DNA of 63,484 nt, counting the filler, from Nemertoderma westbladi (lineage: Eukaryota > Animalia > Xenacoelomorpha): NCBI GenBank assembly GCA_032718475.1. It is 3 parts of 3 records of this genome, joined end to end, with 100 filler letters (N's around TTAATTAATTAA, not from the genome) between each part and the next. Parts side by side here need not be neighbours in the genome. Positions count along the whole stretch, not along the records: positions 1 to 30,075 come from JAUCBJ010004861.1; 2 more parts are not named here. One strand, 5' to 3'. The notes beneath the pieces are model-generated. The model worked only from the letters and a program-made list of their open reading frames with translations. It made no database searches and was not told the DNA's origin. Position numbers and translations under genes: made by a program. Positions within the stretch are counted from its first letter, which is position 1. The number at the start of each line of letters is the position of its first letter. Of the stretch, positions 1 to 59,422 are shown piece after piece.

Positions 1-41
1 ACAATGTGTTGGCAAGCTGTATTTTTCGAGGTGTTTGTTAT
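1..41 (-). repeat. Inverted partial copy of the 412-bp unit (runs off the window edge)
   Basis: 1-41 is the exact reverse complement of 283-323 (ataacaaacacctcgaaaaatacagcttgccaacacattgt). Confidence 0.95.
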
Positions 42-94
42 CCGACACCACGCTGATGAGACCCAGTAAGGTCGAAACGCGTACGTGGTTTGGA
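41..94 (+). ncRNA. Type I hammerhead ribozyme, copy 1
   Basis: Helix I accacg/cgtggt (extendable by tccga/ttgga around a bulged C), core CTGATGA, helix II gacc-[cagtaa]-ggtc, GAAA, palindromic helix III acgcgt, GUA cleavage triplet (cut after 83). Confidence 0.93.
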
Positions 95-395
95 GAGATA
101 TGAGATATTAATTTCAAGAAAAATTACGCGATTCCTAAATTTGTACACTACCCGGTTAAAAAGTACGCATGTGATGGGATTAGTCCTACAATTGCGCCAA
201 TAAAAGATAAGTTATTTTCGGTAAAATAAACATATCATTCGAGGTTAAGACCCCTAGATCCCTTCTTATAATAAAATGTATAATAACAAACACCTCGAAA
301 AATACAGCTTGCCAACACATTGTTACTATCAATAATCAAAAATCAGGGGCTAATAAAATGGCAGCTGTCTTTGAAATTAATACTCCATATCTCAA

Positions 396-455
396 GAACC
401 TGTGGCCTAGTGGTTGTAGTCTCGGCTTCCGCCTCGAGGTCCCAGGTTCGAATCC
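396..455 (+). promoter_or_regulatory. tRNA-derived internal Pol III promoter (A and B boxes); repeated in each full unit (also about 808, 1220, 1632, 2041, 2453)
   Basis: A box TGGCCTAGTGG at 403-413 and B box GGTTCGAATCC at 445-455, with tRNA-like spacing and a residual anticodon-like arm ctcgg-cttccgcc-tcgag. The acceptor and T stems are not intact. Confidence 0.85.
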
Positions 456-506
456 GACACCACGCTGATGAGACCCAGTAAGGTCGAAACGCGTACGTGG
501 TTTGGA
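453..506 (+). ncRNA. Type I hammerhead ribozyme, copy 2
   Basis: Identical to copy 1; predicted cut after 495. Confidence 0.93.
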
Positions 507-864
507 GAGATATGAGATATTAATTTCAAGAAAAATTACGCGATTCCTAAATTTGTACACTACCCGGTTAAAAAGTACGCATGTGATGGGATTAGTCCTA
601 CAATTGCGCCAATAAAAGATAAGTTATTTTCGGTAAAATAAACTTATCATTCGAGGTTAAGACCCCTAGATCCCTTCTTATAATAAAATGTATAATAACA
701 AACACCTCGAAAAATACAGCTTGCCAACACATTGTTACTATCAATAATCAAAAATCAGGGGCTAATAAAATGGCAGCTGTCTTTGAAATTAATACTCCAT
801 ATCTCAAGAACCTGTGGCCTAGTGGTTGTAGTCTCGGCTTCCGCCTCGAGGTCCCAGGTTCGAA

Positions 865-918
865 TCCGACACCACGCTGATGAGACCCAGTAAGGTCGAA
901 ACGCGTACGTGGTTTGGA
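865..918 (+). ncRNA. Type I hammerhead ribozyme, copy 3
   Basis: Identical to copy 1. Confidence 0.93.
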
Positions 919-1276
919 GAGATATGAGATATTAATTTCAAGAAAAATTACGCGATTCCTAAATTTGTACACTACCCGGTTAAAAAGTACGCATGTGATG
1001 GGATTAGTCCTACAATTGCGCCAATAAAAGATAAGTTATTTTCGGTAAAATAAACTTATCATTCGAGGTTAAGACCCCTAGATCCCTTCTTATAATAAAA
1101 TGTATAATAACAAACACCTCGAAAAATACAGCTTGCCAACACATTGTTACTATCAATAATCAAAAATCAGGGGCTAATAAAATGGCAGCTGTCTTTGAAA
1201 TTAATACTCCATATCTCAAGAACCTGTGGCCTAGTGGTTGTAGTCTCGGCTTCCGCCTCGAGGTCCCAGGTTCGAA

Positions 1277-1330
1277 TCCGACACCACGCTGATGAGACCC
1301 AGTAAGGTCGAAACGCGTACGTGGTTTGGA
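1277..1330 (+). ncRNA. Type I hammerhead ribozyme, copy 4
   Basis: Identical to copy 1. Confidence 0.93.
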
Positions 1331-1688
1331 GAGATATGAGATATTAATTTCAAGAAAAATTACGCGATTCCTAAATTTGTACACTACCCGGTTAAAAAGT
1401 ACGCATGTGATGGGATTAGTCCTACAATTGCGCCAATAAAAGATAAGTTATTTTCGGTAAAATAAACTTATCATTCGAGGTTAAGACCCCTAGATCCCTT
1501 CTTATAATAAAATGTATAATAACAAACACCTCGAAAAATACAGCTTGCCAACACATTGTTACTATCAATAATCAAAAATCAGGGGCTAATAAAATGGCAG
1601 CTGTCTTTGAAATTAATACTCCATATCTCAAGAACCTGTGGCCTAGTGGTTGTAGTCTCGGCTTCCGCCTCGAGGTCCCAGGTTCGAA

Positions 1689-1742
1689 TCCGACACCACG
1701 CTGATGAGACCCAGTAAGGTCGAAACGCGTACGTGGTTTGGA
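1689..1742 (+). ncRNA. Type I hammerhead ribozyme, copy 5
   Basis: Identical to copy 1. Confidence 0.93.
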
Positions 1743-2097
1743 GAGATATGAGATATTAATTTCAAGAAAAATTACGCGATTCCTAAATTTGTACACTACC
1801 CGGTTAAAAAGTACGCATGTGATGGGATTAGTCCTACAATTGCGCCAATAAAAGATAAGTTATTTTCGGTAAAATAAACTTATCATTCGAGGTTAAGACC
1901 CCTAGATCCCTTATAATAAAATGTATAATAACAAACACCTCGAAAAATACAGCTTGCCAACACATTGTTACTATCAATAATCAAAAATCAGGGGCTAATA
2001 AAATGGCAGCTGTCTTTGAAATTAATACTCCATATCTCAAGAACCTGTGGCCTAGTGGTTGTAGTCTCGGCTTCCGCCTCGAGGTCCCAGGTTCGAA

Positions 2098-2151
2098 TCC
2101 GACACCACGCTGATGAGACCCAGTAAGGTCGAAACGCGTACGTGGTTTGGA
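2098..2151 (+). ncRNA. Type I hammerhead ribozyme, copy 6
   Basis: Identical to copy 1. Confidence 0.93.
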
Positions 2152-2509
2152 GAGATATGAGATATTAATTTCAAGAAAAATTACGCGATTCCTAAATTTG
2201 TACACTACCCGGTTAAAAAGTACGCATGTGATGGGATTAGTCCTACAATTGCGCCAATAAAAGATAAGTTATTTTCGGTAAAATAAACTTATCATTCGAG
2301 GTTAAGACCCCTAGATCCCTTCTTATAATAAAATGTATAATAACAAACACCTCGAAAAATACAGCTTGCCAACACATTGTTACTATCAATAATCAAAAAT
2401 CAGGGGCTAATAAAATGGCAGCTGTCTTTGAAATTAATACTCCATATCTCAAGAACCTGTGGCCTAGTGGTTGTAGTCTCGGCTTCCGCCTCGAGGTCCC
2501 AGGTTCGAA

Positions 2510-2563
2510 TCCGACACCACGCTGATGAGACCCAGTAAGGTCGAAACGCGTACGTGGTTTGGA
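2510..2563 (+). ncRNA. Type I hammerhead ribozyme, copy 7
   Basis: Identical to copy 1. Confidence 0.93.
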
Positions 2564-2819
2564 GAGATATGAGATATTAATTTCAAGAAAAATTACGCGA
2601 TTCCTAAATTTGTACACTACCCGGTTAAAAAGTACGCATGTGATGGGATTAGTCCTACAATTGCGCCAATAAAAGATAAGTTATTTTCGGTAAAATAAAC
2701 TTATCATTCGAGGTTAAGACCCCTAGATCCCTTCTTATAATAAAACAGCTTACATACAGGCAGACGATACTTTAAAATGATATGCTTTATTGAGTGTGGC
2801 TTATGTATTGTAGTAGACT

Positions 2820-3150: not shown

Positions 3151-3728
3151 AAGGATGTTTTACGTTACGGTATTACGTTACGTTACGGTTGAAAAACTGA
3201 ACTTTTTACGTTACGATATTACATTACGGAATAATTTCTAAATTACGTTACGTTACTGAATTCCGAAAAAAATACTTGCGTATTACCGAAAATACCGTAA
3301 CGTAATAACCGGTTGATATTGCCATAGGACCACAAAGAGATGTTTAAAGTTTCATCATATTTTTGTCTAAACATCGGAAAACTATAGTTTCAATGTTTTG
3401 AAATTGCAAATTAATTTAATTTTATTAATTAATTCCCCGATTTATTAATCATTATTCTGTATTCCTGTGAAGAAACAAGACACACGGTACCGGTACTAAC
3501 GGTATTCCAGTTTCTCCCTTAACTCCGGTATAAAACGTTATTATTATTTTCCATATAATAAATTATGAATCTATTAATCTTGAAATTAACTCAGAAACTT
3601 TGGGAGTTGAAACTCAGGACGAGAATTATTGTGTTCTAGAACTCTGTATTTAGTCGCCTTCAGATTGGTCAAATTTTAAGTGTTGCTGGAACTCTAAACA
3701 GATTAATTTATCGAGTCCTCTAACTATT
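3151..3728 (+). mobile_element. Truncated copy (left half) of the hAT-like non-autonomous element at 14772-15936
   Basis: Starts aaggatgttttacgttacg and is collinear with about 14773-15400. Confidence 0.8.
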
Positions 3729-3880
3729 ACACCATGTCCCGTAATATATAGTGTCATTTTAGGATGACATGGACCCCCCCCCCCCCCCCCCCCACAGATT
3801 TTTCTACAAATCGTTATCATAATGCTTGAAATTTGAATCACAACTAGTTCCACTCACCGTCGATGACCCCATGTAGCCGG

Positions 3881-7200: not shown

Positions 7201-7243
7201 AATAATCTGTATCCTCCCGTCTCTGTAACCTCCCGTCTCTGTA

Positions 7244-8708
7244 CTACTAGGATCGGCATGCTGCATTGAAGCTGCATTTTTAAGAATGCTGTGCCGGCTT
7301 ATCGACAAAATTGCACCGCCACAACTCCCTATCACCCATGACATTTGCTAGATCATCCGCATCTTCAAGGCCAGTGTCCTTTAAGATGCGTCTCAAGAAA
7401 GTCATGGGCTGTCCACCATGCTTATTCACTCCATGAGGCTGCCAAAGTACAAGATTATGCACTGGCTGGTCCTCACGGCGAAAGCAATGTCCTGCAAAGC
7501 GGAGGCGATTTTGTTCTAGTGTCAAGCTTGGGGAAACCAATGAGACACCTCCAATGTTATATAGTGTCTGGTTGGAGATGTGTGCATTGAACTTGCCACA
7601 ATGAACCCGGCGTAGCATTCTTGTGAATGTGCCATCCAGAGATTTGGTGTCCTCAGCAGTTAGAGCCCAGCATAGTACTGGAACTACTGGCTGCTCTAAA
7701 TAAAAGGACCTTAAATTTCCGATTAATTCTCGGTGACTTCCAAATCCTGGAAAGCCTATTCAAGGCGGCCCATGCCTTTCCCTTACGTATTCGTAGGTCC
7801 TCGCCTGACTTCCGGATCCATGATCCCAGGTAACAGAAGTCATCCACATGCTCAAGCATACCATATTTTGAGCTTATGCTCATCCGATCAGAGACTTGCT
7901 GATGACTTTCAAAGTTAACTGTCAAAATTTTGGTCTTTATGGAGTTAATAAAAAGACCAACACTAGAAGCAGCATGTTCTAATGAGCTGAGGAGCCGTTG
8001 GGCTCCCTCTAGTGATTCTGAGAGTACTCCTAAGTCATCAGCAAAGTCTAGATCAGTTAGGTACTTGGCAGGATTTCCTAGATTTCTGAAGCCAGTAGGT
8101 GGAGTTATCATCACCCCATCATCATTATGATGATCTAAGGACATGCGTAGAACATAGTCAACAACAATTATGAACAAGAATGGTGCAAGTGTGTCTCCCT
8201 GGAGGACGCCCCATAACACTTCAAATGGTTCTGTGTCACCGTCAACAGTAGACACAAATGTTGTCGAACCATCGTATACTGATCTGATTGCTGCAATAAT
8301 TTCATCAGGAATCCCATATAATGAAAGTATGCTGAACATACGTGAGCGAGAGACTGAATCAAAGGCCTTGAAGAAGTCAACAAAGATAACAGCCAGATGC
8401 CTGTCTTTCTTTTTGATAACTCTTCAATTATCCTTCTAAGTGCCAAAATGGGCTCCATGGTCCCACGACCTTTACGGAACCCATTCTGATTTCCACGGAG
8501 CAGTCTCTCAATGGGATCTCTGATGCGATTTAATAGAATTCTATTGTATAGCTTTGCAGCAATTGAGATCAATGAGATTCCCCGAAAAGAACCATAGAGT
8601 GTTAGGTTGCCCTTCTTGGGAACTGGCACCAACTTATTTGTTTTCATTTCTTGTGGGACTCTTGTTGTACGGTACATGTCTACTATGATGGGATAGATGA
8701 GCTTTAAA
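7244..8708 (-). mobile_element. 5'-truncated RTE-group (RTE/RTE-X-like) LINE with frameshifts
   Basis: RT motifs PKKG, RGISL, QNGFRKGR, GVLQGDTLAPFLF, FADD, YLGS, RLRFAGHC; (TAG)n tail; 11-bp TSD ccgtctctgta at 7233-7243 and 8709-8719. Confidence 0.92.
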
Positions 8709-11402
8709 CCGTCTCTGTAACCTGCTCCTTTCCCCAATCGTTTGAAGGTTAGACGCGGGCAAAGATTGCACCAAACCTAAGCAAAGTATGTCCCTGTGTA
8801 CCTACTGTCTACTACTGTACTGTATGTATTGGTACTCAACGGGAGCCAGTAATATAAATATTATTCATTCTAGAACAGGTATTTAGGAAACAAGGGGTGA
8901 ACCAGAGGTATAAAAGGTGAGTTGATTCTATTGGTTGTCTGGCTAGCTGAAGCTGCTAATGTGCTCGTGATGTGCATGGAAAGGTCTCCCCTTCCATACA
9001 ATGCTAAAACTACAATCAGACAATAATACTGTAATAGTATTATTTTCCGTGGGTGAGTTCCAAACACAGCTTCTTAAGAGTAAATTGCTCATACTAGAGT
9101 AATGTATATAACATACAGTAGGTCATGCGTCGTGCGATCTCGGACATGATAAGTGTAATCCTACCATCATCGTGTCTTATTTTAAGCATTTAAATTCACC
9201 CATTGTGAAGAATACATAATTATTAAATGTTTTATAGAGCTTATTCCTTTATTAAGACCGAAATTGAATTTTAAATGCGAATTTGAACTAGAACGCCATC
9301 AAGATGGCTTTAAACGAACCTGTCTTACACGGACTCAAAGAAACAGATGGGGATTGGAAGATGCAAACCAAGAATGACTTGCATCAACCAAAAAAACTGC
9401 CTCCCATCTAATGTAATACACATTCGCCTAGGCAAACAAATCATATCACAATTACAGTACTACGATGATGTCTGAAATGGTATCCATATCCGCAACCTGA
9501 GAAACGGTCCAAAAGAGCTGTTTATTCTGCGGAGGGGTCTTCTGTATTAGATAAATAAAATAAAGAACACTAATTACAGTATTTATACCTGATACATTCT
9601 CAGTTAGCCTAATAAAAACATCAGAGCAACCAATATAATGTACATGTACAAGCCTCCTATGAAAGCTTGTGAAGTGTTCCCTTAAGTCTACCCAACAGCC
9701 GTTGGTACCCGGCTGGCAGCCACCCTGGTTCAGTTTTCTGGTTTTGTTAGTTTAATCGACAGCTGTTGTAAACGTCCCAGATATACAAAACCTACTAAGC
9801 CTTTACATTACAATTGAGCTTAGCCTGAGTTGATGACAGTATTATAACAATGACAATTACTGAATTAGGCCCTATAGATACATACGATATATAAATGAGG
9901 TACTGCTTGAAATTGCACTAACTGACTGAATAGAGATAGAACTATAATAATATAATAATAATGTAATACGTAACTCAAATTAACAATAAGTAGTGAAATG
10001 TTGTTCAGCTGACAAAGTGTAGCTGTGGGTATTTAATTTCGCGTTCCGTAATGTTGATAATATGCTAATATTTCGAATATCGCACATCGAATCGTTCCCA
10101 ACTTTTTTATTCAACAACTAGATACTAATTGATAAATAGTCGCGTTAAAACTTGTTGCGTACCTGCTTGAGTTTTTGAGATATTGGATGGTTATACACAC
10201 CAACATACACACACATCGTGTTTTTGAACGGCTCAACTCTTGACACAGACAGGTAACTTTACAATTTCCTATATCAGATTCAGATTATGTTCTTGATACA
10301 GAGAGGGCTGTAGCCTGTAGGGGCCTAGCACCTACTGACCTATCTGCCTCTGGCCCTATGCCAGTATGCTGCTATTGAAATTTAATCAATTTCATTTGAT
10401 ATTGACTGATTGATATTGCTGTATTCAGGTATTGCAGTAGGTGGCAGGAGCAGCAGGGCCTACCGCTGCTGTCCTGCTGTCAGACTTCAGGCTGTCAGCA
10501 GGTCCAAGGTCAGTGGGTGTGATTTGGTCAATTTGGTGTGATTTTGGTGTTTAGACGGACCGAACAAATATAATAATCTCAGAATCTGTGGCGAATGTAC
10601 TTCTGTTCACGTTCAGTGTTCAGTAGGCCCTAGGCCTACCGGTGACCGGTACTTGCACTTGACTTGCACTTCACACTTGGAAGGTGGACTGGGCAGCAGT
10701 CTGGTAGTGGGCACGGGCAGGTTTTAACGCATTGCGCTTATTTCAGTAAGGCCCTATTTCCAAAATTTTGCGTTATTCGACTATTATCTGATTACTGGAT
10801 TATTGAGCAAAAACCATGAAATTTCTTGAAGATTATTTTTTATCAACTTGTAGCAGTGTAGTTGTAGATCAGTTCTGCATTTTATTGTCTGATATTTGAA
10901 TAACAAATGACTGTTTATTCATTATTGGGCAGAATTTCATGGCGATTTTTTTAAAAATGAACCCAACTGCCCAATGGCCTGGCCAGGCCATACCTGCATA
11001 CAACCCCTTGAGAGGGTAGAGGGCAGGGGTACTAAGTCATTTAAAATGTAGACCTATACAATATTGGTGGCCATACCTGGCACCTGGGGTGGTATGGCCA
11101 CCCTTTTGTCATCAGTTTGATTATCCCCGAATTACTCAGTGTGTGACTCAACTGATGAGTGATGTGATGACACACCTGCACCGCATACAAACTTACATAG
11201 GCTGATCAGCTGATAGCCCTGCCTACGCCCTACAGTCCTGCAGTCTGAATGTAGAGAGTTAGGTATACGATACGCCAGCAGGCTAAGCTGCTAAGCCTAT
11301 AGTCCGGTACACGGACGCTAGACTAGACCAGACCCTACCTGATTGCTGGATTGTGATTGCCCTACTTCTGTATACTGGTATAACGTATAACTGTATTATT
11401 AA

Positions 11403-12431
11403 ATGTCAAATTTGATTAAACCTACATTATTAATATCGAGTACGCGCAATGTATTCTTGAATCTTGGCTTGGAATTGTGGTTGTTTAACACAAAGATTCT
11501 TAAGGAAAATGAGAAGCTTGTTTATATTTGGGTGAATGATCCTGCTGCCGTGATTGGTCGTCATCAAAATCCTTGGAAAGAAATTGATTTAACTATCGCC
11601 AAGCGATATGGGATATCTGTCGCTAGGAGGTCCAGCGGTGGCGGCTCTGTATATCATGATCCGAGCAACTTGTGTATAACTTTTTTCCAATCCAGGAACT
11701 CATACAGTAAATCTTTGAATCTTGAGTGGATTGTGAACTCTTTAAACACAGTTTGGCCTTACCTTGATCTTACTATCAATTCTCGGGGAGATATACTAAA
11801 CAAAAATAAATTGAAGATATCTGGTTCTGCTTCCAAACTAACTCGTTTGTCAGCATACCATCACTGTACTCTACTCAGCCGTGGCTCCAATCTATCAATT
11901 ATTCCCAAACTCCTCCGGCACAACACAGACTTGAGCAATCTAGCGTGTCGAGCTACAGATAGTTTACACTCACTGGTTGGGTCCATTGATCTCGATGTAG
12001 ATGAAGTTATACAAGGATTAATTGACGTCAATAATATGGATGAAATTATTTATGTAAATGCAACCGATGAAAATATATATCCCGGTATTTCTGACTGTTA
12101 CACTGAATTGCTATCTTGGGACTGGGTTTATGGAAAAACGCCGCGATTCATTATTCACCAAATCCTTAAGGAAACTGGTCTAAAACTTAAACTGACCATC
12201 TTTAAGGGTATTATTGAAGACGTTGAGATTTTAAACATGTGTTCTTCTTCCTATGAAAGTGTTGGTATTATATTTTCTGAACATTTAAAAGGGATTCGTT
12301 TTACCAAGACAGACTTATACTCAGCAATTTCCCGTCTATTGAATTCTCCTATATATAGTAATAATAGTGTTTATTTTGATATTGTTGTTAGTGATATAAT
12401 ATCTCTAATATCGAATATGAATATATTATAA
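11403..12431 (+). CDS. LIPT1: Lipoyltransferase 1 (lipoate-protein ligase A family), single coding exon, 342 aa
   Basis: Motifs VIGRHQNPWKE, RRSSGGGSVYHD, KISGSA, YHHCTLL and WDWVYGKTP. Confidence 0.93.
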   Translation: MSNLIKPTLLISSTRNVFLNLGLELWLFNTKILKENEKLVYIWVNDPAAVIGRHQNPWKEIDLTIAKRYGISVARRSSGGGSVYHDPSNLCITFFQSRNSYSKSLNLEWIVNSLNTVWPYLDLTINSRGDILNKNKLKISGSASKLTRLSAYHHCTLLSRGSNLSIIPKLLRHNTDLSNLACRATDSLHSLVGSIDLDVDEVIQGLIDVNNMDEIIYVNATDENIYPGISDCYTELLSWDWVYGKTPRFIIHQILKETGLKLKLTIFKGIIEDVEILNMCSSSYESVGIIFSEHLKGIRFTKTDLYSAISRLLNSPIYSNNSVYFDIVVSDIISLISNMNIL

Positions 12432-14771: not shown

Positions 14772-15936
14772 CAAGGATGTTTTACGTTACGTTACGTTAC
14801 GTTACGTTACGTTACGTTACGTTACGTTACGTTACGGTATTACGTTACGTTACGTTACGTTACGTTACGGTATTACGTTACGTTGCGGTTGAAAAACTGA
14901 ACATTTTACGTTACGATATTTCATTACGGAATAATTTTCAAATTACGTTACGTTACTGTATTCTGAAAAAAATAATTGCGTATTACCGAAAATACCGTAA
15001 CGTAATAACCGGTTGATATTGCCATAAGATGTTGACAAAGAGATATTTAAAGTTTCATATTTTTGTCTAAACATCGGAAAACTATAGTTTCAATGTTTTG
15101 AAATTGCAAATTAACTTAACCATAAAAATAACTCCTGTGAAGAAACAAGACACACGGTACCGGTACTAACGGTATTCCAGTTACTCCCTTAACTCAGGTA
15201 TAAAACGTTATTATTATTTTCCATATAATAAACTGTGAATCTATTAATCTTGAAATTAACTCAGAAACTTTGGGAGTTGAAACTCAGGACGAGAATTATT
15301 GTGTTCTAGAAATCTGTATTTAGTCGCCTTCAGATTGGCCAAAGTTTAAGTGTTGCTGGAACTCTAAACAGATTAATTTAACGAGTCCTCAAACTATTAT
15401 TTAGGTCATGGATCATATAGTTTAGGTTATGTAGTTTATATTGTTTTTGTGATATTGTGGGGCGAGCCACGAAGTGAGTGAGCCTTTGTGCTGCGCGAAG
15501 GCCCCACGAACGTGTTCGTTTTTGTGATATTGTAATTGTTAAGTAGCCTATACTGAAGAAGTGCGCCTAGAATTAGCTTTTGGCTAAATTGATAGGGGGA
15601 CTTCATCATAAATAACTGGAGAAGCCAGGAAGCTGGCTATAAGGATACCGTGTACAGACAAACAAAACCTAAAAGCATTTAGCTTTATATTGAATTAGCT
15701 AGAACATGCAAGTGAAAGTGAAAGTTTTTGTCGAAAGATTTACTTTTTTGTCCAAAATGATTGCTTGGTAGCTAAAACAAATATTACGCTATTACGTTAC
15801 GTTTTACGGAAAAAATATACAGTAAAATTACGTTACGGTATTGAAAAAGCTATTACGTTACGGTTTACGTTACGGAAAAATATTGAGCTACCGTATTCCT
15901 GAAAAGATACCGTAACGTAACGTAACAACATCTTTG
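14772..15936. mobile_element. Non-autonomous hAT-like element in ATG4 intron 2
   Basis: TIRs caaggatgttttacgttacg / cgtaacgtaacaacatctttg; 8-bp TSD gagctcag (14764-14771) versus gtgctcag (15937-15944); GTTAC subterminal repeats. Confidence 0.85.
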
Positions 15937-24689: not shown

Positions 24690-25787
24690 ATTGTTTATCC
24701 CATCCTTGTTTATATCATCCTTGTTTATCCCATCCTTGTTTATATCATCCTTGTTTATATCATCCTTGTTTATATCATCCTTGTTTATATCATCCTTGTT
24801 TATATCATCCTTGTTTATATCATCCTTGTTTATATCATCCTTGTTTATATCATCCTTGTTTATATCATCCTTGTTTATCTCATCCTTGTTTATATCATCC
24901 TTGTTTATATCATCCTTGTTTATATCATCCTTGTTTATCTCATCCTTGTTTATATCATCCTTGTTTATATCATCCTTGTTTATATCATCCTTGTTTATAT
25001 CATCCTTGTTTATATCATCCTTGTTTATATAATCCTTGTTTATATCATCCTTGTTTATATCATCCTTGTTTATCTCATCCTTGTTTATATCATCCTTGTT
25101 TATATCATCCTTGTTTATATCATCCTTGTTTATATCATCCTTGTTTATATCATCCTTGTTTATATCATCCTTGTTTATCTCATCCTTGTTTATCTCATCC
25201 TTGTTTATCTCATCCTTGTTTATATCATCCTTGTTTATATCATCCTTGATTATATCATCCTTGTTTATATCATCCTTGTTTATATCATCCTTGATTATAT
25301 CATCCTTGTTTATATCATCCTTGTTTATATCATCCTTGTTTATCTCATCCTTGTTTATCTCATCCTTGTTTATATCATCCTTGTTTATATCATCCTTGTT
25401 TATCTCATCCTTGTTTATATCATCCTTGTTTATATCATCCTTGTTTATATCATCCTTGTTTATATCATCCTTGTTTATATCATCCTTGTTTATATCATCC
25501 TTGTTTATATCATCCTTGTTTATATCATCCTTGTTTATCTCATCCTTGTTTATATCATCCTTGTTTATATCATCCTTGATTATATCATCCTTGTTTATAT
25601 CATCCTTGTTTATATCATCCTTGTTTATATCATCCTTGTTTATATCATCCTTGTTTATCTCATCCTTGTTTATTTCATCCTTGTTTATATCATCCTTGTT
25701 TATATCATCCTTGTTTATATCATCCTTGTTTATTTCATCCTTGTTTATATCATTCTTGTTTATATCATCCTTGTTTATATCATCCTT
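24690..25787 (+). repeat. 15-bp minisatellite (TATATCATCCTTGTT)n abutting the ATG4 exon 6 acceptor
   Basis: About 73 near-perfect tandem units ending in ...catccttcctcag|. Confidence 0.97.
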
Positions 25788-35376: not shown

Positions 35377-38300
35377 TAAAATATAATAATATATATATAG
35401 GGGGATTAAAATACAGAACAAATAGAAGGGTCCTATTTATTCTGTATTTCCGTATATCAATGAACTCTATAAAAACACAATACTGTTTAGATATTATTCA
35501 ATTGTTTATAAATCAGTGGCAACATACATTATTTTTCCAGGATTACACTGCATTACACGAGCTGGTCTAATACGGAGCTACCAAATTATAATTATAAATT
35601 ATAATTTGAATAATACTCTTCTTCTGAATTATAACTTTGTTATCTACATGATTCCACGTCCACCATATTCCGCAGTACGAATATGAATAAACCAATCTCG
35701 CTAACCGGTTTTGCTATAGTGTTCTTGCTAGTTATCTATATAGGAAAAAGCCTGAGTCAAAGTAACGAAGATGGGTACATTATTCTTTCGCCAAAGTCCA
35801 TTCGACCTGGTCTTCCATATCCTGTATCAATATTGATCCTATCTCAGTCATTCAAAAACGTATATGAAACAGTTACTCTACGTCTGGAGGACAGAGAACA
35901 GAATACTATCAAATCGAAAATCGTTAACATTAAAGTTGGTTCAGTGGCTTCAGAAATGATGGATGTTCCTAATGATTGAGGGTCTGGTTCTTACAGTCTT
36001 CATGTGACTGGTGATTCTCCTGTGAGATTCGAAAACGCAACTGACCTGGAGTTCAACCCTCAACAATTGTCAGTATTTATTCAAACTGACAAAGCCATCT
36101 ACAAACCTGGAGAGGTTATTCGTATCAGGGCATTCGCCATAAACCCAACAAATTTTAAGACCGTCAGAGAAGACATTGTAATAGAAGCCTTTGACCAAAA
36201 GGGAAATAAAGTGTTCAAGGAAGAAAAGGGTAAAACATCAAGTGGCGTTGTATCCGTGGACATCCCATTAGCTGCAGAATTACTACTAGGTGATTGGCTC
36301 ATCAGGGCTACAACATCTGGTACCAATATGCAATCAGAGCAGGTCGTTGAGATAGGGGAGTATGTTTTGCCAAGGTACAATGTAAGTGTAGTTGGCCCAG
36401 GATATGTTCACACATCAACCAATAAAATCACATTTACTGTTATGGCAGAATACACATATGGTGAGCCTGTTATTGGTTTCGTGGAATTTGAAATTATGGA
36501 TAGTGGTGGTAAAAATGTTTTCTACAGCCAGAAAGATACAATTTCAGGTAAAAAGGAAATCACAGTCTACCGACAAGACGTTGCCAAATTTATATCGTCA
36601 TATAGGAGCACATTGCTGGTACGAGCAAGTGTCAGTGAATCCGAGAACGGTAAAGTCTTATCAGATGAAGCATATCTGATAGTTACTTCAGTTCGACACA
36701 CAGTAGAATTTACAGCTGCTTCTGAAAACCTATTCAAACCTGGTCTAGATCTAAAAGTCTTCCTCACACAGAAAATGCCTGATGGAAATCAAAACAGTGA
36801 TGGAATAACTAGACAAGTTACAATAAAAACATGGTTCACAGAGTCCTGCTCCAATTGTAATAATAATAATAATGGTGGCGGTGTAGAGGTGGCACCTCTA
36901 TTTCCAAAGCCAGACGATTCCCTTGATGTAGTGGACAGTAATACTGGAACTGATAGTAGTGGTACTGGGTCATTCAGTTCAATTAGAATTCAAAATTATA
37001 CACTACCACTACAAGGTTCTATACCAGTTATTATAACCAATATTCCCATCAATACAACTTCAATCTCAATGGAAGCGACATTGGTAGGAGATGCAAACAA
37101 TAACAAAGTCTATCACAATCCAAGTAAAGCTTACTCACCTAGCAACAACTTCTTAAAGATCCAGTCAGAGAAGGATAAGTTTATTCCTGGTATCTACGAT
37201 TTTACAATTAAAACAACTGAATTAGAAGTGGAAGTTTTTTATATAATAATTTCCAGAAATGGGGTTGTTTCTTCTCAAAGCGGAAAAGGCACTACTCTTA
37301 CCAGAAATTCTCACATTATATCAATTCCAATCGACAATTCAATGGCACCATCATCTCGACTCATAGTGTACTATATTAGGTCTGACAGTGAAGTAGTTGC
37401 TGATTCATTCCCTTTCAATGTGACCCCACTACTTAACAATTATGTCAAGTTGGAATTCCAATCTGATCGTATTGAACCTGGTAATAGCAATACACTTGAC
37501 ATTGAAAGTCACCCTGGTTCTACTGTTTTCATTCTTGGTGTCGACCTTAGTGTGTTACTATTAGCAACTGGCAATGATATCACCCACCAGAGAGTTGAAC
37601 ACAGTATAAGCCAGTTTTCTCCTTTTTCACTTGGGACAAGTAATCACGATTATCCCGATTATGATGGTGATGAGAGGATTGCCATATGGCCTGGCCCCAG
37701 GCCACAGGGTAACTTAGATACTGCCGCAATAATAAATAACAATGGATTGGTATCAATGACAAACATGGAAATACCTTCACAGTACAGTTACTATGAAGGT
37801 GACTGGCTCGAGGGTTTTCCACCTCCTGCTCCACCTGGTGAATATGAAGTTGATATGAATGATGATGAAATGAAAAAAACTACAGAAGATAGCTTGCAGT
37901 TGCCAAAGAGAGTACGAAAATGGTTTCCTGAAGCATGGATTTGGGACACAACTACAGTTAATAAATAAGGAACTGCATTGTTAAACAAAGTTATGCCTGA
38001 TACTATAACCTCATGGGCAACAACAGCTTTCACTCTGTCTGATGATGTTGGATTAGGCATAATTGATGGTATGACATTGATGGAAACCTTTCGAAAGTTT
38101 TTTATAACTCTGAATTTACCATATTCAGTTGTTAGGGGAGAGCAATTAGTTCTTGAAGTAAGAATATTCAATTACTTTGACTATAATGTTATCGCTGTTA
38201 TTACAATCCAGCAGTCAGATAAGTTTGACTTTATAAAGAAGGAAAACCTTTCTGATGCATCCGCTGTCCTAGACCAAACTATTCAAACTGTCCACTCAGT

Positions 38301-39120
38301 AATAATCCAGCCCGGCACAAGTGAGGTGGTTGGATTTCCATTGCTATTACATACTGTTGGTCACATTCCCATCACAGTTACAGCCCAAACTACTGAGATT
38401 GCTGATGCAGTAGAGCAGCTGCTCATTGTCAAACCGGAAGGTATTAGACAGTCCTATTCACATTCCTGGTTGGTTGATTTGCCAGACAGCAAAGTATCTA
38501 AGCGGTCAACTTTGGAGCAAAGTTTTGACATAACAGTTGATGAAACAGCTGTTCCTGATTCTTCACGAATAATGGTCACTGCCATTGGTGATATAATGGG
38601 ACCCAGTATCAATAATATTGATAGGTTGGTTACCCGTCCTACTGGATGTGGAGAACAAAACATGATAACATTTGCCCCAAATGTCTATGTACGTGAATAC
38701 CTGACTAGTAATGATGAACTCACCCAAGAACTCGAGACAAAAACTCTAAATCATATGAAGATGGGATACCAGAGAGAGTTAATATATCAAAGAGATGATG
38801 GATCATTTAGTGCTTTTGGTAATAGCGACTCCAGTGGAAGCTCCTGGTTGAGTGCATTTGTAATGAAGGTCTTCAGCCAATCAAGTCCTCAGATCACAAT
38901 TGATGGTGCTTTAGTAGCAAATACAATAAAATGGTTAAATAATTACCATGAAGATGGACAATTCAGTGAACCAGGAAAGATTATCCACACAGATATGCAA
39001 GGTGTGGTTGGGAGTGACAATTCTGGCATAGCCATTACTGCCTATATTACCATTGCCCTTATTGAGGTTCGCGATGCAAACCTGCTAAGCATTGATAATG
39101 ACAGACAAATTCTCAATAAC

Positions 39121-39663
39121 TGTGACGGGATCAGAGGATCCCGACCGGTGGTTTATGTACGCGTCCCCGCCGTGTAAGTGAAAAGGGTTCCTTGTTGTTC
39201 CGACTAATATAGATGGGTACAAAATATAGTATACAATAGACAGATAGATAGCATGGTAATATATAATATGAGAAACACTGTAAATCTGATGGTGACGGCG
39301 GTGACGGTCTTAAACTGTCACCGTACTGCCATGACTGTACTGAGATAACTGAGATAATAAGTGATACACCGACCGGTAATATACTGCTCTAGGTTGGCCA
39401 TATTACTCAGTGGATGCCTGCCCCCCATTGGCTAATATCCTAATTCTCGCCCTCCCATCTCTCTGGGAGTGCTTCCCCCCACTACTGTGTTTCTCTCTCT
39501 GTCGGAGGCATAACCTCTGAGCCCCATTGTGTGTGTGTCCTTTGGGGTTTTCTCGTCCCCGTTTGTTGGGGTGATACGACGTTGATTGGCAATCAACCTC
39601 GTGTTCCCAATACTGCTTAAAGCTGACTTTGTGGGGTGATTAGTGGAATTGAATACGCTAACA
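39121..39663 (-). repeat. 3' LTR (543 bp)
   Basis: tgtgacggg...tacgctaaca, followed on the plus strand by ctcccccc (PPT complement). Confidence 0.93.
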
Positions 39664-40724
39664 CTCCCCCCCATGCTATCTTCCTGGTGAGAAGATAGCA
39701 TCCACCTTTAGTGCGCTACAATTCCGCTGGATCCCAATCTACCATCAGGTGTGGGGTGGAGTTATTTTCTTTTCGGAGCCGGCTTTCCAGGCCGCTCCCT
39801 ACGGGTATGATATCGCTACCCTCTCTTGGTGCAACCTCGGCTATGTTGCACCAAGACATCTGGTGTCTCAGTGTCGGGCCGATCGTGAGTTTCTCCCACA
39901 CGATTTTTGTTTCCCCAACACCCTCTCCACTCTAACTCCACTCTAACTCTCGGACCTCCTTGTCCCTCACTCTACCTCTTACTCCTCCTCCCCCACACTT
40001 GAATTGCACCCGTCTTCCCTCCACGCGTTCTATACTCTCTCGCTATCTCTCTTGCGTTCTCCTCTCATACTCTTCTCACATTCCTCTCATACTCCTCTCT
40101 CCCCATGCCTGTGGTCCCATCAAGTGCCGCTCCTACTCGTATCCCGGTAGTGCTCATCTGCACGATTCTTGTCCTGCAGGATACGAGCTTTCACAATAAA
40201 TCCTGAGCTCCGCCCTGTTGTCATGACCACGCACTTTATCGGGTCCCACGCATGTGCGCACATGTTAGTGGGAGCCGTTTAAGTCCCATCCTGTCGCCCT
40301 AGTCAATTAGTCCCCAGTCCCAGTAGCTAATTGGAAAAAGGTTGTGCTTGACTACGGTACATACTGTATAATATATGAATTGCTATATAATTATTATAAG
40401 ATTACAATTATTGTTATTATATATATTATATTATAAGCTCGTCTACATAACGCGTTTCATTCCTACTACTCACTACTCTCTCTCCACCTTTCTCGCCTGG
40501 CGACTTCTTCCAGTCGCTTCCCCTCAAGTCTATCCGCTTCCGACTTCTCCCAGCTCTGTTGTGTATCCACCTCCCTGTCTACTAGATGCGGCTGTTGTAT
40601 TACACCGACTCGCCCTCCAGCCCCCGGGTGGTCTACCAGACCTTCGAAGGCCACCTAGAAGGCCCTTCTGTAGTTCGGAGGTGATCCTGATATTCTTAAC
40701 TTTCTGTGCTATTATCCTATCTAC

Positions 40725-41455
40725 CCTTTCTAGCTACTACTTCTACGGTCTCTACTCTCTTACTGCTAAATCTACTAACTCCACTAGCTCTACTAGCTCT
40801 ACTAACTCCACTAGCTCTACTAACTCCCTGGCTCTACTGACTCCTCTAGCTCTACTGACTCCCTGGCTCTACTGACTCTCTAACTCTACTGGCTCTCTAC
40901 CTCCACTAACTCTACTGACTCTCTACCTCTACTAACTCTACTGACTCTCTAACTCTACTGGCTCTCTACCTCCACTAACTCTACTGATTCTCTACTCTAC
41001 TAACTCTACTGACTCTCTACCTCTACCAACTCTACTGACTCTCTACCTCTAACTAACGATACTACGTACCCTCTTACTACTCTTACTAACTCCTCTAGCT
41101 AACGGTACTACCTACCCTCTTACTACTCTCACTAACTCCTCTACCTGCACGTGACGCTCTGAGTGCCGGCAAAGTGGGTATGTTAATTATGTGAACTACT
41201 ACTAACTCTTACTAACTCTACTAACCGGTACTACTTACCCTCTTACTAACCTCTAACTCCACTAACTCTTACTAACCGGTACTACGTACCCTCTTACTAA
41301 CTCAACTACCTCCATCTACGTGGCGCTTGGGGTGCCCACAACCACTCTACTACTACCTCTACATTGCTAACTCATACTAACTCTACTACCTTTCATCTAC
41401 GTGGCGCTTGCGGTGCCCACAACCACTCTACTACTACCTCTACTCTGCTAACTTC
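40725..41455. repeat. CTCTACTA-type low-complexity tandem repeats inside the LTR element
   Basis: Runs of ctctactaact / ctctactgact. Confidence 0.85.
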
Positions 41456-44222
41456 TTGTGCCCGGCACCTCTTGTGCCCGGCACCCACCCTAGTTAACAT
41501 ACCCTGCTCTTACATCAAACACGTCATCACGCCCGTGCCCTACTTATTTCAACGCACCCCCTGTACCCTTCTCATCTCTCCCATCTTTCTCCTCTAGCTC
41601 ACCCTACTGTACTTGTTTCCTCTACTTGTTTGTTCTTGGTTGTCTATACTGCGGATATTTGTAGTGGGGGAATGTCACCCTGCCCCCCCCCCCCCCCCAC
41701 CGGTGTTATGTTTGGTACTGGGGCTGATGTTAATATATTGGGGCCCATCCATCTATCTGCAATATCCCCCTCAACCGGGTCTTTGTTATGTCCCTGGATA
41801 TTATAGTCATGCTGCTGTGCTGGTACCGATATAGGCCTATCCACTTCTTGCCTACCTACCGGCATGTACTCCGCGACTTCCGGATCTAATCCCGTCGTTC
41901 GTGCTACCCTATCGCCTACACTATCTCTCCCAGCATGGCCTACAATAGTATGTGCAGTAAGGCCTACAGTATGTCCTGCAGTCTGCATGTGTCGCTCGGA
42001 ATCGAAGCTCAACCTTCTCGAATAATCCTCCCTGCGACTACCGTTTTCTCGATCGGTAGGTATATCCTGCCGGGAAGTTTCACTTCGATCCCCTATTCTG
42101 CTCTCCTCCTCGTGCCGGTACACCTTGTACCCTTCTCGCGGTGTGTAGTACACCTCGTCAGGTTGCGTCTCTCCGGGACGACGGCAATCTCCCGGAGTTC
42201 GACCCCACTGACTCTCCGACTCCATCTCTATCTCCGACGGCTCGCTATCCGTCCTCGCTCTCCTGTCGTTCGCGACGACACTTCTCCCACTCTCTTCTCT
42301 CTTTCTCTCTACAGTGTAGCGTCCCCGCTCGCGAGATCTCTCGTCGACCTCCCGGTTCAACTCCACTGTTCTTCCTCTCTCTTCTGACTGGGCTCGACGT
42401 CTCGTCGCTCGCCCTCTCGCGACGTCAACCTGTCTCTCTCTGCTCGATCGCACGCCGCTGGGGATACTTGTAACCCCCCTACTATTCTCCATCGCCGGGT
42501 GTTGCGGTCCACCTAATTCGCCCCGCGCATTATCCGCCGACGCCTGTGGGACATTCTTTGCCCCCCCCCCCCCCCCCTCTCGCCGCTAATTAATCTCTCG
42601 TTGTGGGGCTCCTGTAGCCCCCCCCCCCCCCCCCCCCCCCGCTCGCCACTTCTCGCTTCACTCTCTCTCACTTTACTTCTACACCCCTCTCTAGTCGATG
42701 CACTATCTCTATTGCGGCTGGGTCCATTCACCCCCGCCTCTCTCTCTACTACTGCGTGGCCTACCAGGCCCTCGTCGGGTTGACTCAACCCCGCCCCTCC
42801 CTGCACACTAACTGCGTGGCCTACCAGGCTCTCATTGGGGTTTCCCACCCCCGTTGCTCCCTGCCTACTGACTACGTGGCCTTGCAGGCCCTCGTTGGCC
42901 GGACTACCTGTGTCTACATTAGTATTAATAGCGCCGTTATCAATGTTATTATTTAGATTATTCAAATTAGAATTATTATTATTTTCTAAATTTAAATTAT
43001 TATTCGAATTATTTGGATTAATATTATTATTTGAATTTAAATTTAAATTACCGGGTAAAATATTTCCTGTAATAAAGGGATTAAGGTTATCTACTACGGT
43101 ACTATTAATATTAACGTTCTCTACTCTATTACTATTATTACCCCCCCCCCCCCCCCCCCCCCGCCCGTACGGTCACACCAGTCTTGGGTCTGTCGTCCGG
43201 TCCCTGAAAGTGGTCCCTGAAAATTAACAAACGTTCCTCTCTCTCCATCCTCTCGCAAACCTTGCTCGGCCAACTCTGTCTCTCTCGCAACCCTCTCAAG
43301 CCACCTCGCCTCGTGCTCCTTGCGCTCGCTCGCCCCTCTCTTGCCTCACGCTCTTTACACTGACACGCCAGATTTATTTCTAACACCCTTCTTACTTCGC
43401 GGAGGATGTAGCAGACTTATCGGTTGCGACGAACTCCCGTCGCCCCTCCGTCCTACTAACTTTCTCCCGCTTTCCGGGGTTTTCTCCGACCGACGAGACC
43501 GAATCCTCGGGATTAACCTCGGATTCGCCCTCCTGCGGTCCCCTCCAACCCACTAATTTTATTCCCCGGGCATCGACTAAGTATGGCCCTATGTACACTA
43601 TACCAGGCTCCATACCCCTACATTCCCACAGTTCAAACAGTTCGCTGGCAACCCCTCTCGCTTTCTCATCGGCTAGTTCTCCCTGCCCAAAGCCCACTAA
43701 GCAATCAAAATGTTTATTCGACTCACCTAGCCGCTTCTCTAGCTTCACCTGGTCTATCTTGGCCCCTCCTTTAACTTCCCTTAGTTGCTTCCGGGTCGCA
43801 GTGTAGGCTCGTCGGAGCCGGTCGCTGACCCCAACATCCTCGTCGCCGACATCTCCTCTATCCCTCCATGTTCGGCGTTGTACCGGCAGCCCCACCGTCG
43901 CCGTTCCGGTAGGCCATCTGTCGCCCTCGGCCTGTGGCTGGCCGGCGACATCGGCACGCTGACCGCCGTCGTGTGTCGACTCGTCTCTCTCCTCTCTCGA
44001 CTCATCTTCTCGTCCTCGTTGTAGACAGCCCCCTCCGCTTGGATTGCCGGATCGTTCGTCGTCGACGAATCCGGCCTCGTGGGTTGATACCGTCTCGCCG
44101 TGGCCTCGCGGATCGTTAGGTTGTCGTCCAGGGTCCGCGGCGGTGTTGTCTCTCTTTCTTGACTCATCTTTGCTCTGGTGGCTGGCAGTCACAGCTTCTA
44201 GGCAGTCCTTAGAGTTTAAGAC

Positions 44223-44770
44223 TGTGACTGGATTGGAGGATCACGACCAGTGGTTTATGTACGCGTCCCCGCCGTGTAAGTGAAAAGGGTTCCTTGTTGT
44301 TCCGACTAATATTGATGGGTACAAAATATAGTATACAATAGACAGATAGATAGCACGGTAATATATAATATGAGAAACACTGTAAATCTGATGGTGACGG
44401 CGGTGACGGTCTTAAACTGTCACCGTACAGCCATGACTGTACTGAGATAACTGAGATAATAAGTGATACACCGACCAGTAATATACTGCTCTAGGTTGGC
44501 CATATTACTCAGCGGATGCCTGCCCCCCATTGGCTAATATCCTATTTCTCGCCCTCCTACTGAATCTCTCTGGGAGTGCTTCCCCCCACTACTGTGATTC
44601 TCTCTCTAACGGAGCCATAACCTCTGACCCCCATTGTGTGTGTGTCCTTTGGGGTTTTCTCGTCCCCGTTTGTTGGGGTGATGCGAGGTTGATTGGCAAT
44701 CAACCTTGTGTTCCCAATATTGCTTAAAGCTAACTTTGTGGGGTGATTAGCGGAATTGAATACGCTAACA
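44223..44770 (-). repeat. 5' LTR (548 bp)
   Basis: tgtgactgg...tacgctaaca; roughly 20-25 substitutions and one indel relative to the other LTR, counted by eye. Confidence 0.93.
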
Positions 44771-47137
44771 ATAACATGATTACCAGTGCTACCACTTATC
44801 TCGAAGGGAAGATTAATCAAGCAGACATATACAGCATTTGTGTTATTAGTTATGCTTTGGCTAAGCAAGACAGTACACATGTGGGGAATGTGCTGCAATT
44901 ACTTGATGATGTGGCTGTTGAGACAGATGGAATGAAATATTGGGCAGTAGATAATAAGAAGATTCCTATCCCTGTATGGGCAGATTCTCGTCACCCTCAT
45001 TCTCCACAAATCGAAATCGAAATGGCCGCATATGTGTTGTTAACATATGCACAGCTTGGTGATGTAGATAGTGGCCTTCCTGTGCTCAAATGCCTGTCAT
45101 CCCAACGTAATGAGTTGGGTGGGTACACCAACACACAGAATACTGTGATTGCCCTGGAGGCCTTGGCTAAATTTTCAGCTATCCTGTCCAGCACAGACAC
45201 CGAACTCACAATCACAGCTGCAGTACCTGGTGTTGATTTTTCTATATTTGAAATTACAATTAGCAATGATAACATCGGTGTGCTACACAGTAGAGATGTT
45301 ACAAGTTACAACATGGATACGATATCCTTAAGAGTTGAAGGACATGGAAGGGCTTTACTTCAAGTGGTTGTCATGTACAATACACGTTTAGAATTTGTAG
45401 AACCAACTTACGAGCTTGATATATCACTAGATAATACGGAATCTGATAGCAAGATGAGAGTAAAATCCTGCGCAAAACGAATTAATAACAATGATGAAGG
45501 TATGGTAGTCATGAAGATTGGTTTACCCAGCGGATTTAAATGTGTTGACTATCATCAATATAATGGTGGTAAAAAATCTGTAAAAAGGATTGACATGGCA
45601 GAGAATGGGGTGGAGGTTTACTTGGACGGATTGGACGAAGAAGAAATGTGTTTGGAATTCGATATTGAACGAGAAAGTCTTGTGGCAGCGAGCCAACCAG
45701 CCTCAGCATCAGTATACACCTATTACAGACAAGCAGAAAGGGCTGATGTTTTATATTTTTCGACGAAGTTGGCTGATATGAGTGCATGTGATATCTGCAA
45801 AACTTGTGGAAATATGTGTGCAGGAAGCACAGCTATGAGAGCCTCGCAAGTACTGGTTGCTGTTACCTTCCTATACCTCCTTATATTCTAGGAACAAAGA
45901 ATACACCACATTTACATAGATAATTCTAATTTCTTCGCTGAAACTTTTGATTTTCCCCAAAATGTTGACCCCCTCCCTCCCCTAAATCAGATGTCATTGA
46001 TAGGCGTTGACCCCCCCCCCCCCCCCCCCCTAAATCAGATTGAAAAAAAAATTTTCGCGTCCTAATAACTAAAAAACATGGTGACTGGTAACGGAAACAG
46101 AAGGTCGTGCTACGGGCCTTCGGGTGCTTGAAACAATTAAAATAGGCGAGCTATTTACTCTTCTGCTATATCTTTTCTAGCATCTATAAATGAACATGCT
46201 GACGTCAGATTTTGGCTGACCCCCTCCCCTCCCCTCATCAGCACGTCATCAGATTTTCCCACCCCCCCCCCCCTAAAGTGCTGACGTCATACTTGGACGG
46301 CCCCCAAGTTATATTTATCATTGACGTTTTTCAGTAATTTTCAGTTTTTTCGTTAATGAAAGACTTCATTACTACTAACGCTAGATGCTCTATCCGTTTC
46401 CATCACAATTAAATATGGTAACGTATAAATAGGAGTTTAAAGTGTCCTCTCATATGATTGATACTACGCCACGCAATATTGTACTGTTCCAAATGTTTTG
46501 ATAATTGGTCAATCTTAAATGAAACTTTTGGAAAAGAATAGCATTAATAGTGTTTGTATTTGTCGCGCCAAGTGGTTTAAATTTGGTGCACAGCAAGCAA
46601 ATATAATTTATTGAAATTATCTTACAAATGTTATACTTGGTGTCACATAAATTTTGGTACGATTTTATTTTTTAATAATTCACTGAGAATTGAAGAAAAT
46701 CACAATTTATTTCTTGTATCATCTGAAAGCCAGTGCTAACTTAGATGTTGATATAAATGTATATTAATTTGGTATGTTTTTCTTAACTTTTTAAAAAAAT
46801 AATAAGAGTGAAAAATAATAATATAATGACTTATAATAAAATAAGTCATTATATTTCATAATGGATAAATAAGATGTTTCTTTGTTATTTCTTTAAGACC
46901 GAGTTACACGTGGCAACTTTGTCAGCAACTTGTAGAGCAACTCAGGTTGCCGATCAAGGTATAAATTATATAAATATGAAATTATATTATATCATATTAG
47001 ATAAAATCTGTTTTTATTGAAGAATTCCATGGTTGTTTATTGTTTACCCACATTTGAATTGTATTTTATGCCATGTTTTGACTCAGATACCTTTACGGTT
47101 GTTTTATAAAATTAAGGAATACAGTTATATTATACAT

Positions 47138-58960: not shown

Positions 58961-59374
58961 TAATAGAAAGTGAAACACTTTGACTGAAGTAGTTCTTACA
59001 AAAAGCCTTTACATACATACTTTAGCAGCTTCAAACTACAGTACTGTACTCTACACGTACAATGATTTAAATACCGACTTTGTTACACTAAAATATGAAA
59101 CCACTCATTCACCCAAAATACCAATAAATATTACAAAAATGCCGCTTCTATTTCTCGTTATTGGCGTAATTAATTGTCCTGCCAAAATTTATAGATTGTT
59201 TAGAGTGTATTAATTATAGTGGCCGTAATGGTTCACAGTTAATCATTGTAGCGAGTGGATAAAGAAAGACGGCCAAATTCAGTAGAATTGAGCACAGTGG
59301 CAGCAGGTCATTAATATATTGGCAGAATAAATTGCGAACATACAAGATATCAGGTAGTATTTCCAGGTCTACCT

Positions 59375-59422
59375 GTGCCGCTAGCTGAATGGTTAGAGCG
59401 TCAGACTTCCAACCCGGAGGTC
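59375..59422 (+). mobile_element. Truncated tRNA-derived head (SINE remnant)
   Basis: A box TAGCTGAATGG at 59382-59392, CTTCCAA loop and GAGGTC; no B box. Confidence 0.5.

Follow-up and report, generated by a model that had tools for sequence, protein, structure and literature searches.

The stretch of DNA analysed here (the window; 63,484 nucleotides) consists of three parts of the genome of the xenacoelomorph Nemertoderma westbladi (GCA_032718475.1) joined end to end, and close to its start lies a tandem array of a 412-bp unit in which a tRNA-like head, carrying A and B boxes of the type used by RNA polymerase III (Pol III), runs directly into a type I hammerhead ribozyme motif. With a probability of about two in three, the array goes back to a single insertion of a young, dispersed repeat that is likely transcribed by Pol III, is predicted to be cut by a double hammerhead into monomers that would close into 412-nt circles, and was likely copied by a Penelope-like element. 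The original prediction for this DNA, made from inspection of the sequence, had proposed a retrozyme resembling the Schistosoma repeat Sm-alpha, and that proposal fits every feature that could be tested.

Tandem repeat analysis of the window returned a period of 412 bp and 6.6 copies with 99% matches on the + strand, at the very positions first proposed for the array (Table 1). The units are nearly identical; the fifth lacks 3 nt, and otherwise a single substitution (position 232) is the only difference. Seven hammerhead cores, all intact, start at positions 53, 465, 877, 1289, 1701, 2110 and 2522, and are accompanied by six heads because the array begins within the first B box. With 161 G+C among its 412 bases, the unit has the size, composition and lack of coding capacity of animal retrozymes without long terminal repeats (non-LTR retrozymes), which form tandem units of 150-450 bp with a G+C content below 45-50% and encode no protein. 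No further locus of the unit occurs elsewhere in the window. A core-like motif at position 2826 was rejected, as it lacks helices and fails the core-plus-helices descriptor introduced below.

The first T of the GTTC motif of the B box (position 447) is placed 44 bases past the start of the A box, the spacing found in tRNAs with a short arm. Only 11 of 20,000 shuffled units contain a pair of boxes at tRNA spacing, and a regular expression for the pair has two matches in the rest of the window, on a count by which the unit itself scores two for its single site. Both boxes fall where they had been predicted and, as in Sm-alpha and Sj-alpha, stand directly upstream of the hammerhead in tandem units. 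A profile built from 41 tRNAs of fetched loci, which were picked by means of a B-box pattern and hence biased towards the B box, aligns with positions 400-462 at 13.7 bits (E ~0.003), a score equalled by 3 of 500 shuffles in which the B box was held fixed. The possibility that the head is a tRNA gene with a cloverleaf fold was rejected: ARAGORN returned 0 genes, no Rfam tRNA match was obtained at E values up to 10, and the head folds as a rod. The head is tRNA-like in sequence, yet it is not a tRNA. Given the two boxes, transcription of the array by Pol III is likely. Depletion of T runs was discarded as a sign of selection by Pol III, the one run of four T residues (T4) comparing with a shuffle mean of 1.5-1.6 (P of at most one, 0.52-0.54). 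Runs of four A residues number eight (P 0.009 with mononucleotide or 0.08 with dinucleotide shuffles). Apparent paired changes in the remnant of the anticodon arm, seen in the consensus of loose contig ends, were not taken as covariation; they lie at CpG sites in mixed contigs. Elsewhere in the window, a second, truncated tRNA-like head at 59367-59424 (+ strand) comprises an A box and an anticodon arm and no B box; it scores 21.2 bits on the same profile and opens with a few letters that are the same as those of the head in the array.

The hammerhead consists of helix I (459-464/496-501) with an extension (453-457/502-506), the core (465-471 and 486-489), and helix II (472-475/482-485). Not one of 20,000 dinucleotide shuffles of the unit satisfies a descriptor of the core plus helices I and II, and the other 60,734 bases of the window yield no match to it either. 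The search with Rfam hammerhead models suggested by the original prediction was answered in part: HH9 matches all seven cores, so that every unit has its type I hammerhead, as expected of a retrozyme, but at 26.6-27 bits (E 0.001-0.0014 over 4 kb, 5.6e-5 over 161 nt), which is below the gathering score of 52. In the extended helix I, the TCC that closes the B box (453-455) is paired to 504-506 at a probability of 0.87-1.0, and the cleavage triplet GUA ends at A495. Two earlier claims, that these bases are used twice and that cleavage should occur after A495, stand with this result, the second as a prediction from the motif. The description of the hammerhead as complete holds for the core and for helices I and II but not for helix III, which is reduced to a lone A-U pair capped by a 4-nt palindrome as its loop and has a pair probability of 0 in the monomer.

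Because helix III has one pair and a palindromic loop, cleavage probably needs two cores. Repeats of axolotl and newt with a one-pair helix III and a palindromic tetraloop are described as cleaving efficiently only as dimers (PMC7229834; PMC6155905). When two isolated motifs were folded together, the best structure was a double hammerhead (−42.7 vs −33.6 kcal/mol). With a two-core transcript of positions 396-930, the double hammerhead tied with the unconstrained minimum (−158.7 kcal/mol), and with 453-930 it was the minimum-energy fold. Folding predicts that the unit between the cores of the 396-930 transcript forms a rod and thereby brings the two cores together; cuts at 495 and 907 would then release a monomer of 412 nt with both ends still held by helix I. 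The circular monomer folds at −103.3 kcal/mol (z −4.5), a value that 0 of 60 shuffles reach, and the linear form has a z of −4.4; a highly self-paired monomer is likewise a property of animal non-LTR retrozymes. Two RNA models had been offered, namely read-through to 412-nt monomers and an RNA of 235 nt that terminates at the T4 run, confirmed as the only one of the unit, and is cut into pieces of 100 and 135 nt. The sizes were computed correctly. Read-through is favoured, since helix III is not stable in a core on its own and the two-core double hammerhead comes at no energy cost, and the 100- and 135-nt products are less likely because the minimum-energy structure of the 235-nt RNA lacks helices I and II. 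Monomers would be closed into circles by ligation of the RtcB type, by analogy with other retrozymes. One run of sequencing (X4; guessed to be RNA, and labelled with another organism) contained a 441-nt contig closed on itself and carrying the majority alleles of the family; it is a possible carry-over and fits tandem DNA as well as circular RNA.

It is unlikely that the RNA spreads as linear multimers, with a hammerhead that cuts little or merely trims and with circles that are rare or irrelevant to mobility. The weak helix III speaks for this, as do the failure of most Xenopus retrozyme dimers to cleave in vitro (only 1 of 9 did; 10.64898/2026.07.22.740005) and the finding that uncleaved RNA is the main template for the Penelope protein of the anole (PMC11167929); a multimeric transcript could also template an insertion of 6.6 units. 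It is countered by the strong self-pairing of the monomer, which is predicted to pre-organise both cores and the ligation junction, and by the abundant circles that repeats of a similar kind yield in coral, mussel and axolotl. No variant at 3% or more was found inside the hammerhead core in runs X1 or X3, which also points away from a dispensable ribozyme, though the test is weak for so young a family.

Evidence that the unit is dispersed was obtained by aligning the assembled contigs of four sequencing runs (X1, X3, X4 and X5) with positions 1-451 of the window; a further run, X7 (share 0.11), was left aside. Matching contigs numbered 3477 with X1, 1363 with X3, 85 with X5 and 1 with X4; those of X1 were mostly at least 95% alike (2920 of 3477), and the head-to-tail joint of the units was present in all four runs. 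Long 3' flanks that are mutually dissimilar (agreement 0.39-0.46) gather at two positions of the unit, ~283 (18 contigs with X1, 22 with X3) and ~342 (20 and 32, respectively). These positions were corrected for shared first letters and derive from the 18 loose-end rows listed, beside 461 further rows. The retrozyme proposal would have been undermined by a lack of dispersed copies; the variety of flanking sequences at two places of the unit, with X1 as well as with X3, puts the repeat at many loci. The family is young, high-copy, dispersed and non-coding. The summed depth of ~5-7 x 10^5 with X1, against rare variant joints at 20-27, is inflated by overlapping contigs and provides no copy number; the family would comprise on the order of 10^3-10^4 units.

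All units of the array carry minority alleles of the family at positions 266, 337 and 368, where another letter accounts for 88-89%, 66-70% and 93-98% of the depth, respectively. Since these minority letters are common to all of them, the units appear to have a single template, or a single local expansion, as their origin. Near-identical units with common minority alleles would also fit local homogenisation of a satellite DNA, one that arose from an old fusion of a short interspersed nuclear element (SINE) with a hammerhead and grew by unequal crossover or gene conversion with the boxes and ribozyme as passengers that take part in no RNA cycle today, and expansion of retrozymes in satellite style has been discussed (10.64898/2026.07.22.740005). 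DNA recombination, however, predicts no fixed ends, and this origin is very unlikely in view of the dozens of differing flanks at two fixed unit positions in two studies and of the inverted tail at the 5' end described below.

Two side observations concern the sequencing runs. Joints found at a depth of 20-27 with X1 reach 401-1158 with X5, in contigs of 0.6-1.9 kb; X5 is recorded as DNA by guess, may be RNA or an amplified library, and was given no weight as a sign of expression. In X5 contig 24, a copy of the unit has a cluster of about ten T-to-C changes over window positions 233-284, several of which also occur at low depth with X1 and X3, making the copy at least partly genomic. It could stem from minus-strand RNA edited from A to I, or simply be old.

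The positions at which the copies end suggest how they were made. The segment between the two preferred 3' ends is the most A+C-rich part of the unit (68%; 71% in the best window of 65 bases), both ends are A-rich, and the array itself ends at the equivalent of position 276. At its 5' side the window opens with a feature overlooked in the original prediction, an inverted copy of positions 283-323. Its start coincides exactly with the first of the preferred 3' ends, it runs from there into the tail segment, and its far end lies outside the window. Both kinds of end are known from Penelope-like elements. The Penelope protein of the anole starts reverse transcription at two internal sites within an AC-rich region, and these sites define the genomic tail; it also nicks and extends both DNA strands (PMC11167929). 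An inverted, truncated copy next to the 5' end and a tail of 30-40 bp are given as typical of Penelope-like insertions (PMC8557442). Because the end pattern and the inverted 5' piece match this footprint, the helper that moves the unit would, by analogy, be a Penelope-type retrotransposon. A 2026 preprint has tied animal retrozymes to Penelope pseudo-long terminal repeats (pLTRs), with which they co-occur and which they resemble (10.64898/2026.07.22.740005).

The same Pol III-plus-hammerhead element could instead have been mobilised by a long interspersed nuclear element (LINE), such as one of the reverse transcriptase elements of the window, priming on two A-rich single-stranded stretches, the 5' inversion arising by twin priming. 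This is unlikely, even though the RNA at each of the preferred 3' ends is rich in A and mostly unpaired, the inversion junction has a 2-base microhomology, and the window holds fragments of non-LTR reverse transcriptase (RVT_1 at 7656-8776; a second copy at 50039-50587). The unit has no similarity to the elements of the window that bear these fragments, and the kinship of animal retrozymes with Penelope pLTRs points to a different helper. Twin priming alone would give no reason for the inversion to join the array at the first of the family's preferred 3' ends.

Taken together as a Penelope-assisted retrozyme, the unit would be propagated as follows. Pol III would start near position 396 in any unit and read through the lone T4 run. 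The 412 nt between successive cores would fold as a rod, the palindromes of the two cores would pair as a shared helix III, and cuts are predicted at 495 and 907. A Penelope-like reverse transcriptase and endonuclease would nick AT-rich DNA and start copying the RNA at ~283 and ~342. One strand would go round the circle or along a multimer to give 6.6 units, and the other would copy the tail only and be joined inverted at the 5' side. A lone monomer, once cleaved, would have no promoter ahead of it, and insertion in tandem would restore one for each unit.

Several points weigh against this account. The chain of transcription, cleavage and circle formation is a prediction from sequence and folding, no RNA record with the unit was listed, and the probability of the swapped helix III in the 396-930 ensemble is only ~0.11. 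The Rfam scores lie under their threshold, a good-looking motif can be inactive, as the Xenopus dimers illustrate, and hammerhead cleavage is dispensable for insertion by the anole Penelope protein in vitro (PMC11167929). On the side of transcription, the tRNA likeness upstream of the B box is only modest, as the shuffles with a fixed B box indicate, and the depletion of T runs that read-through by Pol III might predict is not significant. As for mobility, the tail of ~59 bp exceeds the 30-40 bp of described Penelope-like elements, the A-rich ends would also favour priming of the LINE type, and local expansion of one unit would also yield common minority alleles. No Penelope-like open reading frame (ORF) was seen in the window, and a short six-frame scan of it for motifs of the Penelope reverse transcriptase and GIY-YIG domains found none.

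Table 1. Features of the retrozyme array in the window; positions count along the whole stretch, and features within the unit are given for one unit.
Feature	Position	Strand	Basis
Inverted copy of 283-323, truncated where the window opens; overlaps the sense array by two bases (40-41)	1..41	-	Sequence comparison
Tandem array, 6.6 units x 412 bp, 39% G+C, no ORF of at least 120 aa	40..2745	+	Repeat and ORF analysis
Tail between the two preferred 3' ends, ~59 bp, one per unit; largely unpaired	284..342	+	Contig ends, composition, folding
tRNA-like head, repeated at 808, 1220, 1632, 2041 and 2453; predicted rod in which 396-402 pairs with 443-449	396..455	+	Folding, tRNA profile
A box	403..413	+	Sequence
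B box; last three bases open the extended helix I	445..455	+	Sequence and folding
Type I hammerhead, predicted cleavage after A495	453..506	+	Rfam HH9, descriptor, folding
Self-complementary hexamer in place of helix III; predicted partner, hexamer 901-906 of the next unit	489..494	+	Folding
Predicted cleavage-to-cleavage monomer, 412 nt; long basal stem 507-529/783-805	496..907	+	Folding
Lone T4 run per unit, perhaps a leaky terminator for Pol III; in the RNA, part of a hairpin stem	627..630	+	Sequence and folding
3' junction of the array, at unit position 276, seven bases before the first preferred 3' end	2745..2746	+	

The remainder of the window holds ORFs for LIPT1, an alpha-2-macroglobulin-type thioester protein, and eL22, besides the non-LTR reverse transcriptase fragments. 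The best named matches are animal (identity at most 41% for LIPT1 and at most 69% for eL22), and no schistosome is among the best matches listed. Long uninterrupted ORFs for these three proteins, very divergent from named animal proteins, lie at 11403-12431, 35980-39177, 44734-45891 and 56396-57094. The eL22 protein has an N-terminal extension rich in Lys, Pro and Ala. The thioester gene is interrupted at about 39177-44221, where a 550-bp duplication with 95% identity (39119-39663 and 44221-44770) flanks inserted sequence. Frameshifted elements with non-LTR reverse transcriptase are present in several copies of 89-94% identity (7242-8776, 50039-50587 and 53419-53822). A 15-bp minisatellite of 73 copies at 24691-25787 is in frame, within what we take, from reading the translation, to be the 3' part of an ATG4-like gene. 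A dispersed 570-bp repeat (3160-3729 and 14860-15399; 89% alike), found near the 3' flank of the array, opens with short repeats of a 5-bp type.

Similar layouts were sought with two pattern scans, in which a hammerhead core had to come after a B box, and which gave 103 metagenome and 8 viral loci; 4 of these 111 passed a helix filter. None is homologous to the Nemertoderma unit as far as compared, a comparison made for one locus only (L085; matches of 10-13 bases, E 0.79). On the minus strand of this metagenome contig, positions 275-415 comprise an A box, a B box that ends in the extended helix I, and a type I hammerhead with a short palindromic helix III, and the dimer co-fold is favoured (−49.1 vs −40.6). 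Its 648 bases are free of T4 runs and of tRNA calls, and an internal duplication of 108 bp lies downstream; the likeness is in layout only. In the other three loci (approximately L014:347-480, L053:880-1000 on the minus strand, and L108:580-660 on the minus strand), hammerheads with a long helix III directly follow the 3' end of a tRNA. Two of them have intact tRNA genes, tRNA-Thr within a tRNA cluster (L014) and tRNA-Gln (L053), with helix I overlapping the CCA end; L108 is a viral contig with a putative tRNA. These three possibly represent ribozyme-assisted processing of tRNA 3' ends in phage-like DNA. The intact tRNA and the long helix III of L014 and L053 constitute a different arrangement from that of the Nemertoderma unit.

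Among known systems, the closest in layout are Sm-alpha and Sj-alpha of Schistosoma, described in PMC6765202 as SINE-like tandem repeats in which a Pol III promoter precedes a hammerhead and comes to lie at the 3' end of the cleaved monomer. Common to them and the Nemertoderma family are a promoter of tRNA-derived type that leads into a type I hammerhead, tandem units measuring a few hundred bp, and thousands of copies; as in Sm-alpha, the promoter is left near the 3' end of the monomer, so that tandem copies are needed. The differences are the host, here a long-branch animal, the length of the unit (335 bp in Sm-alpha vs 412 bp here), the head, which is related to tRNA-Gln in Sm-alpha according to PMC2770079 and is not assigned to any tRNA here, and the one-pair palindromic helix III, here predicted to make cleavage dimer-dependent; the two are likened by layout, not by sequence homology. 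The promoter-plus-ribozyme design is already known from these blood flukes, and the Nemertoderma element is not a new kind. What it adds to that kind is a pattern of ends like that of Penelope elements and, as a prediction, a jig formed by the double hammerhead. No description of this family, or of tRNA-headed retrozymes outside schistosomes, was found in a literature that was mostly open-access, and the available parts of PMC3531059, PMC6309819, PMC10886601 and PMC5786205 hold no closer precedent.

Animal non-LTR retrozymes (PMC7229834; 10.64898/2026.07.22.740005) likewise have a type I hammerhead in each unit of 150-450 bp, a low G+C content, no ORF, a monomer that pairs with itself, arrays that are dispersed and reach about seven units, and ribozymes that can be dimer-dependent, such as axolotl HHR_Amex1. 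The Nemertoderma units differ by their A and B boxes, retrozymes being portrayed as seemingly promoterless in a review (PMC7761336), a statement to which the family is a counter-example, and by ends with a helper footprint, which is unreported for retrozymes in PMC7229834 and 10.64898/2026.07.22.740005. Penelope-like elements have in common with the family the two fixed 3' ends around an AC-rich segment, the inverted 5' copy, head-to-tail insertion and a type I hammerhead (PMC11167929; PMC8557442), and differ in that the unit has no ORF, a tail longer by the measure given above, and a tRNA-like head. Classical tRNA SINEs resemble it in their tRNA-spaced A and B boxes, non-coding nature and high copy number. 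It is set apart from them by its ends within the unit, its tandem, circularly permuted insertion, and its ribozyme straight after the B box. Classification as such a SINE, which would start with the head and finish in a tail of the LINE type or of poly(A), was rejected for an array that starts in the B box and ends mid-unit.

How animal retrozymes are transcribed and which reverse transcriptase moves them are open questions, and by supplying a candidate internal promoter together with a precise end pattern the family makes both of them testable; it would also constitute a compact natural design for producing circular RNA from a Pol III cassette. A broader proposal can be put forward tentatively, as one that may well prove wrong: the family would be a self-promoting retrozyme whose insertions record the two starts of reverse transcription of a Penelope-like helper, with the rod of the unit acting as a jig that pairs the cores, excises the monomer and holds its ends for ligation. 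Together with Sm-alpha and the unrelated L085, it would exemplify a repeated fusion of B box and helix I, and with it a recurrent class of Pol III-driven, Penelope-dependent circular-RNA 'SINEs'.

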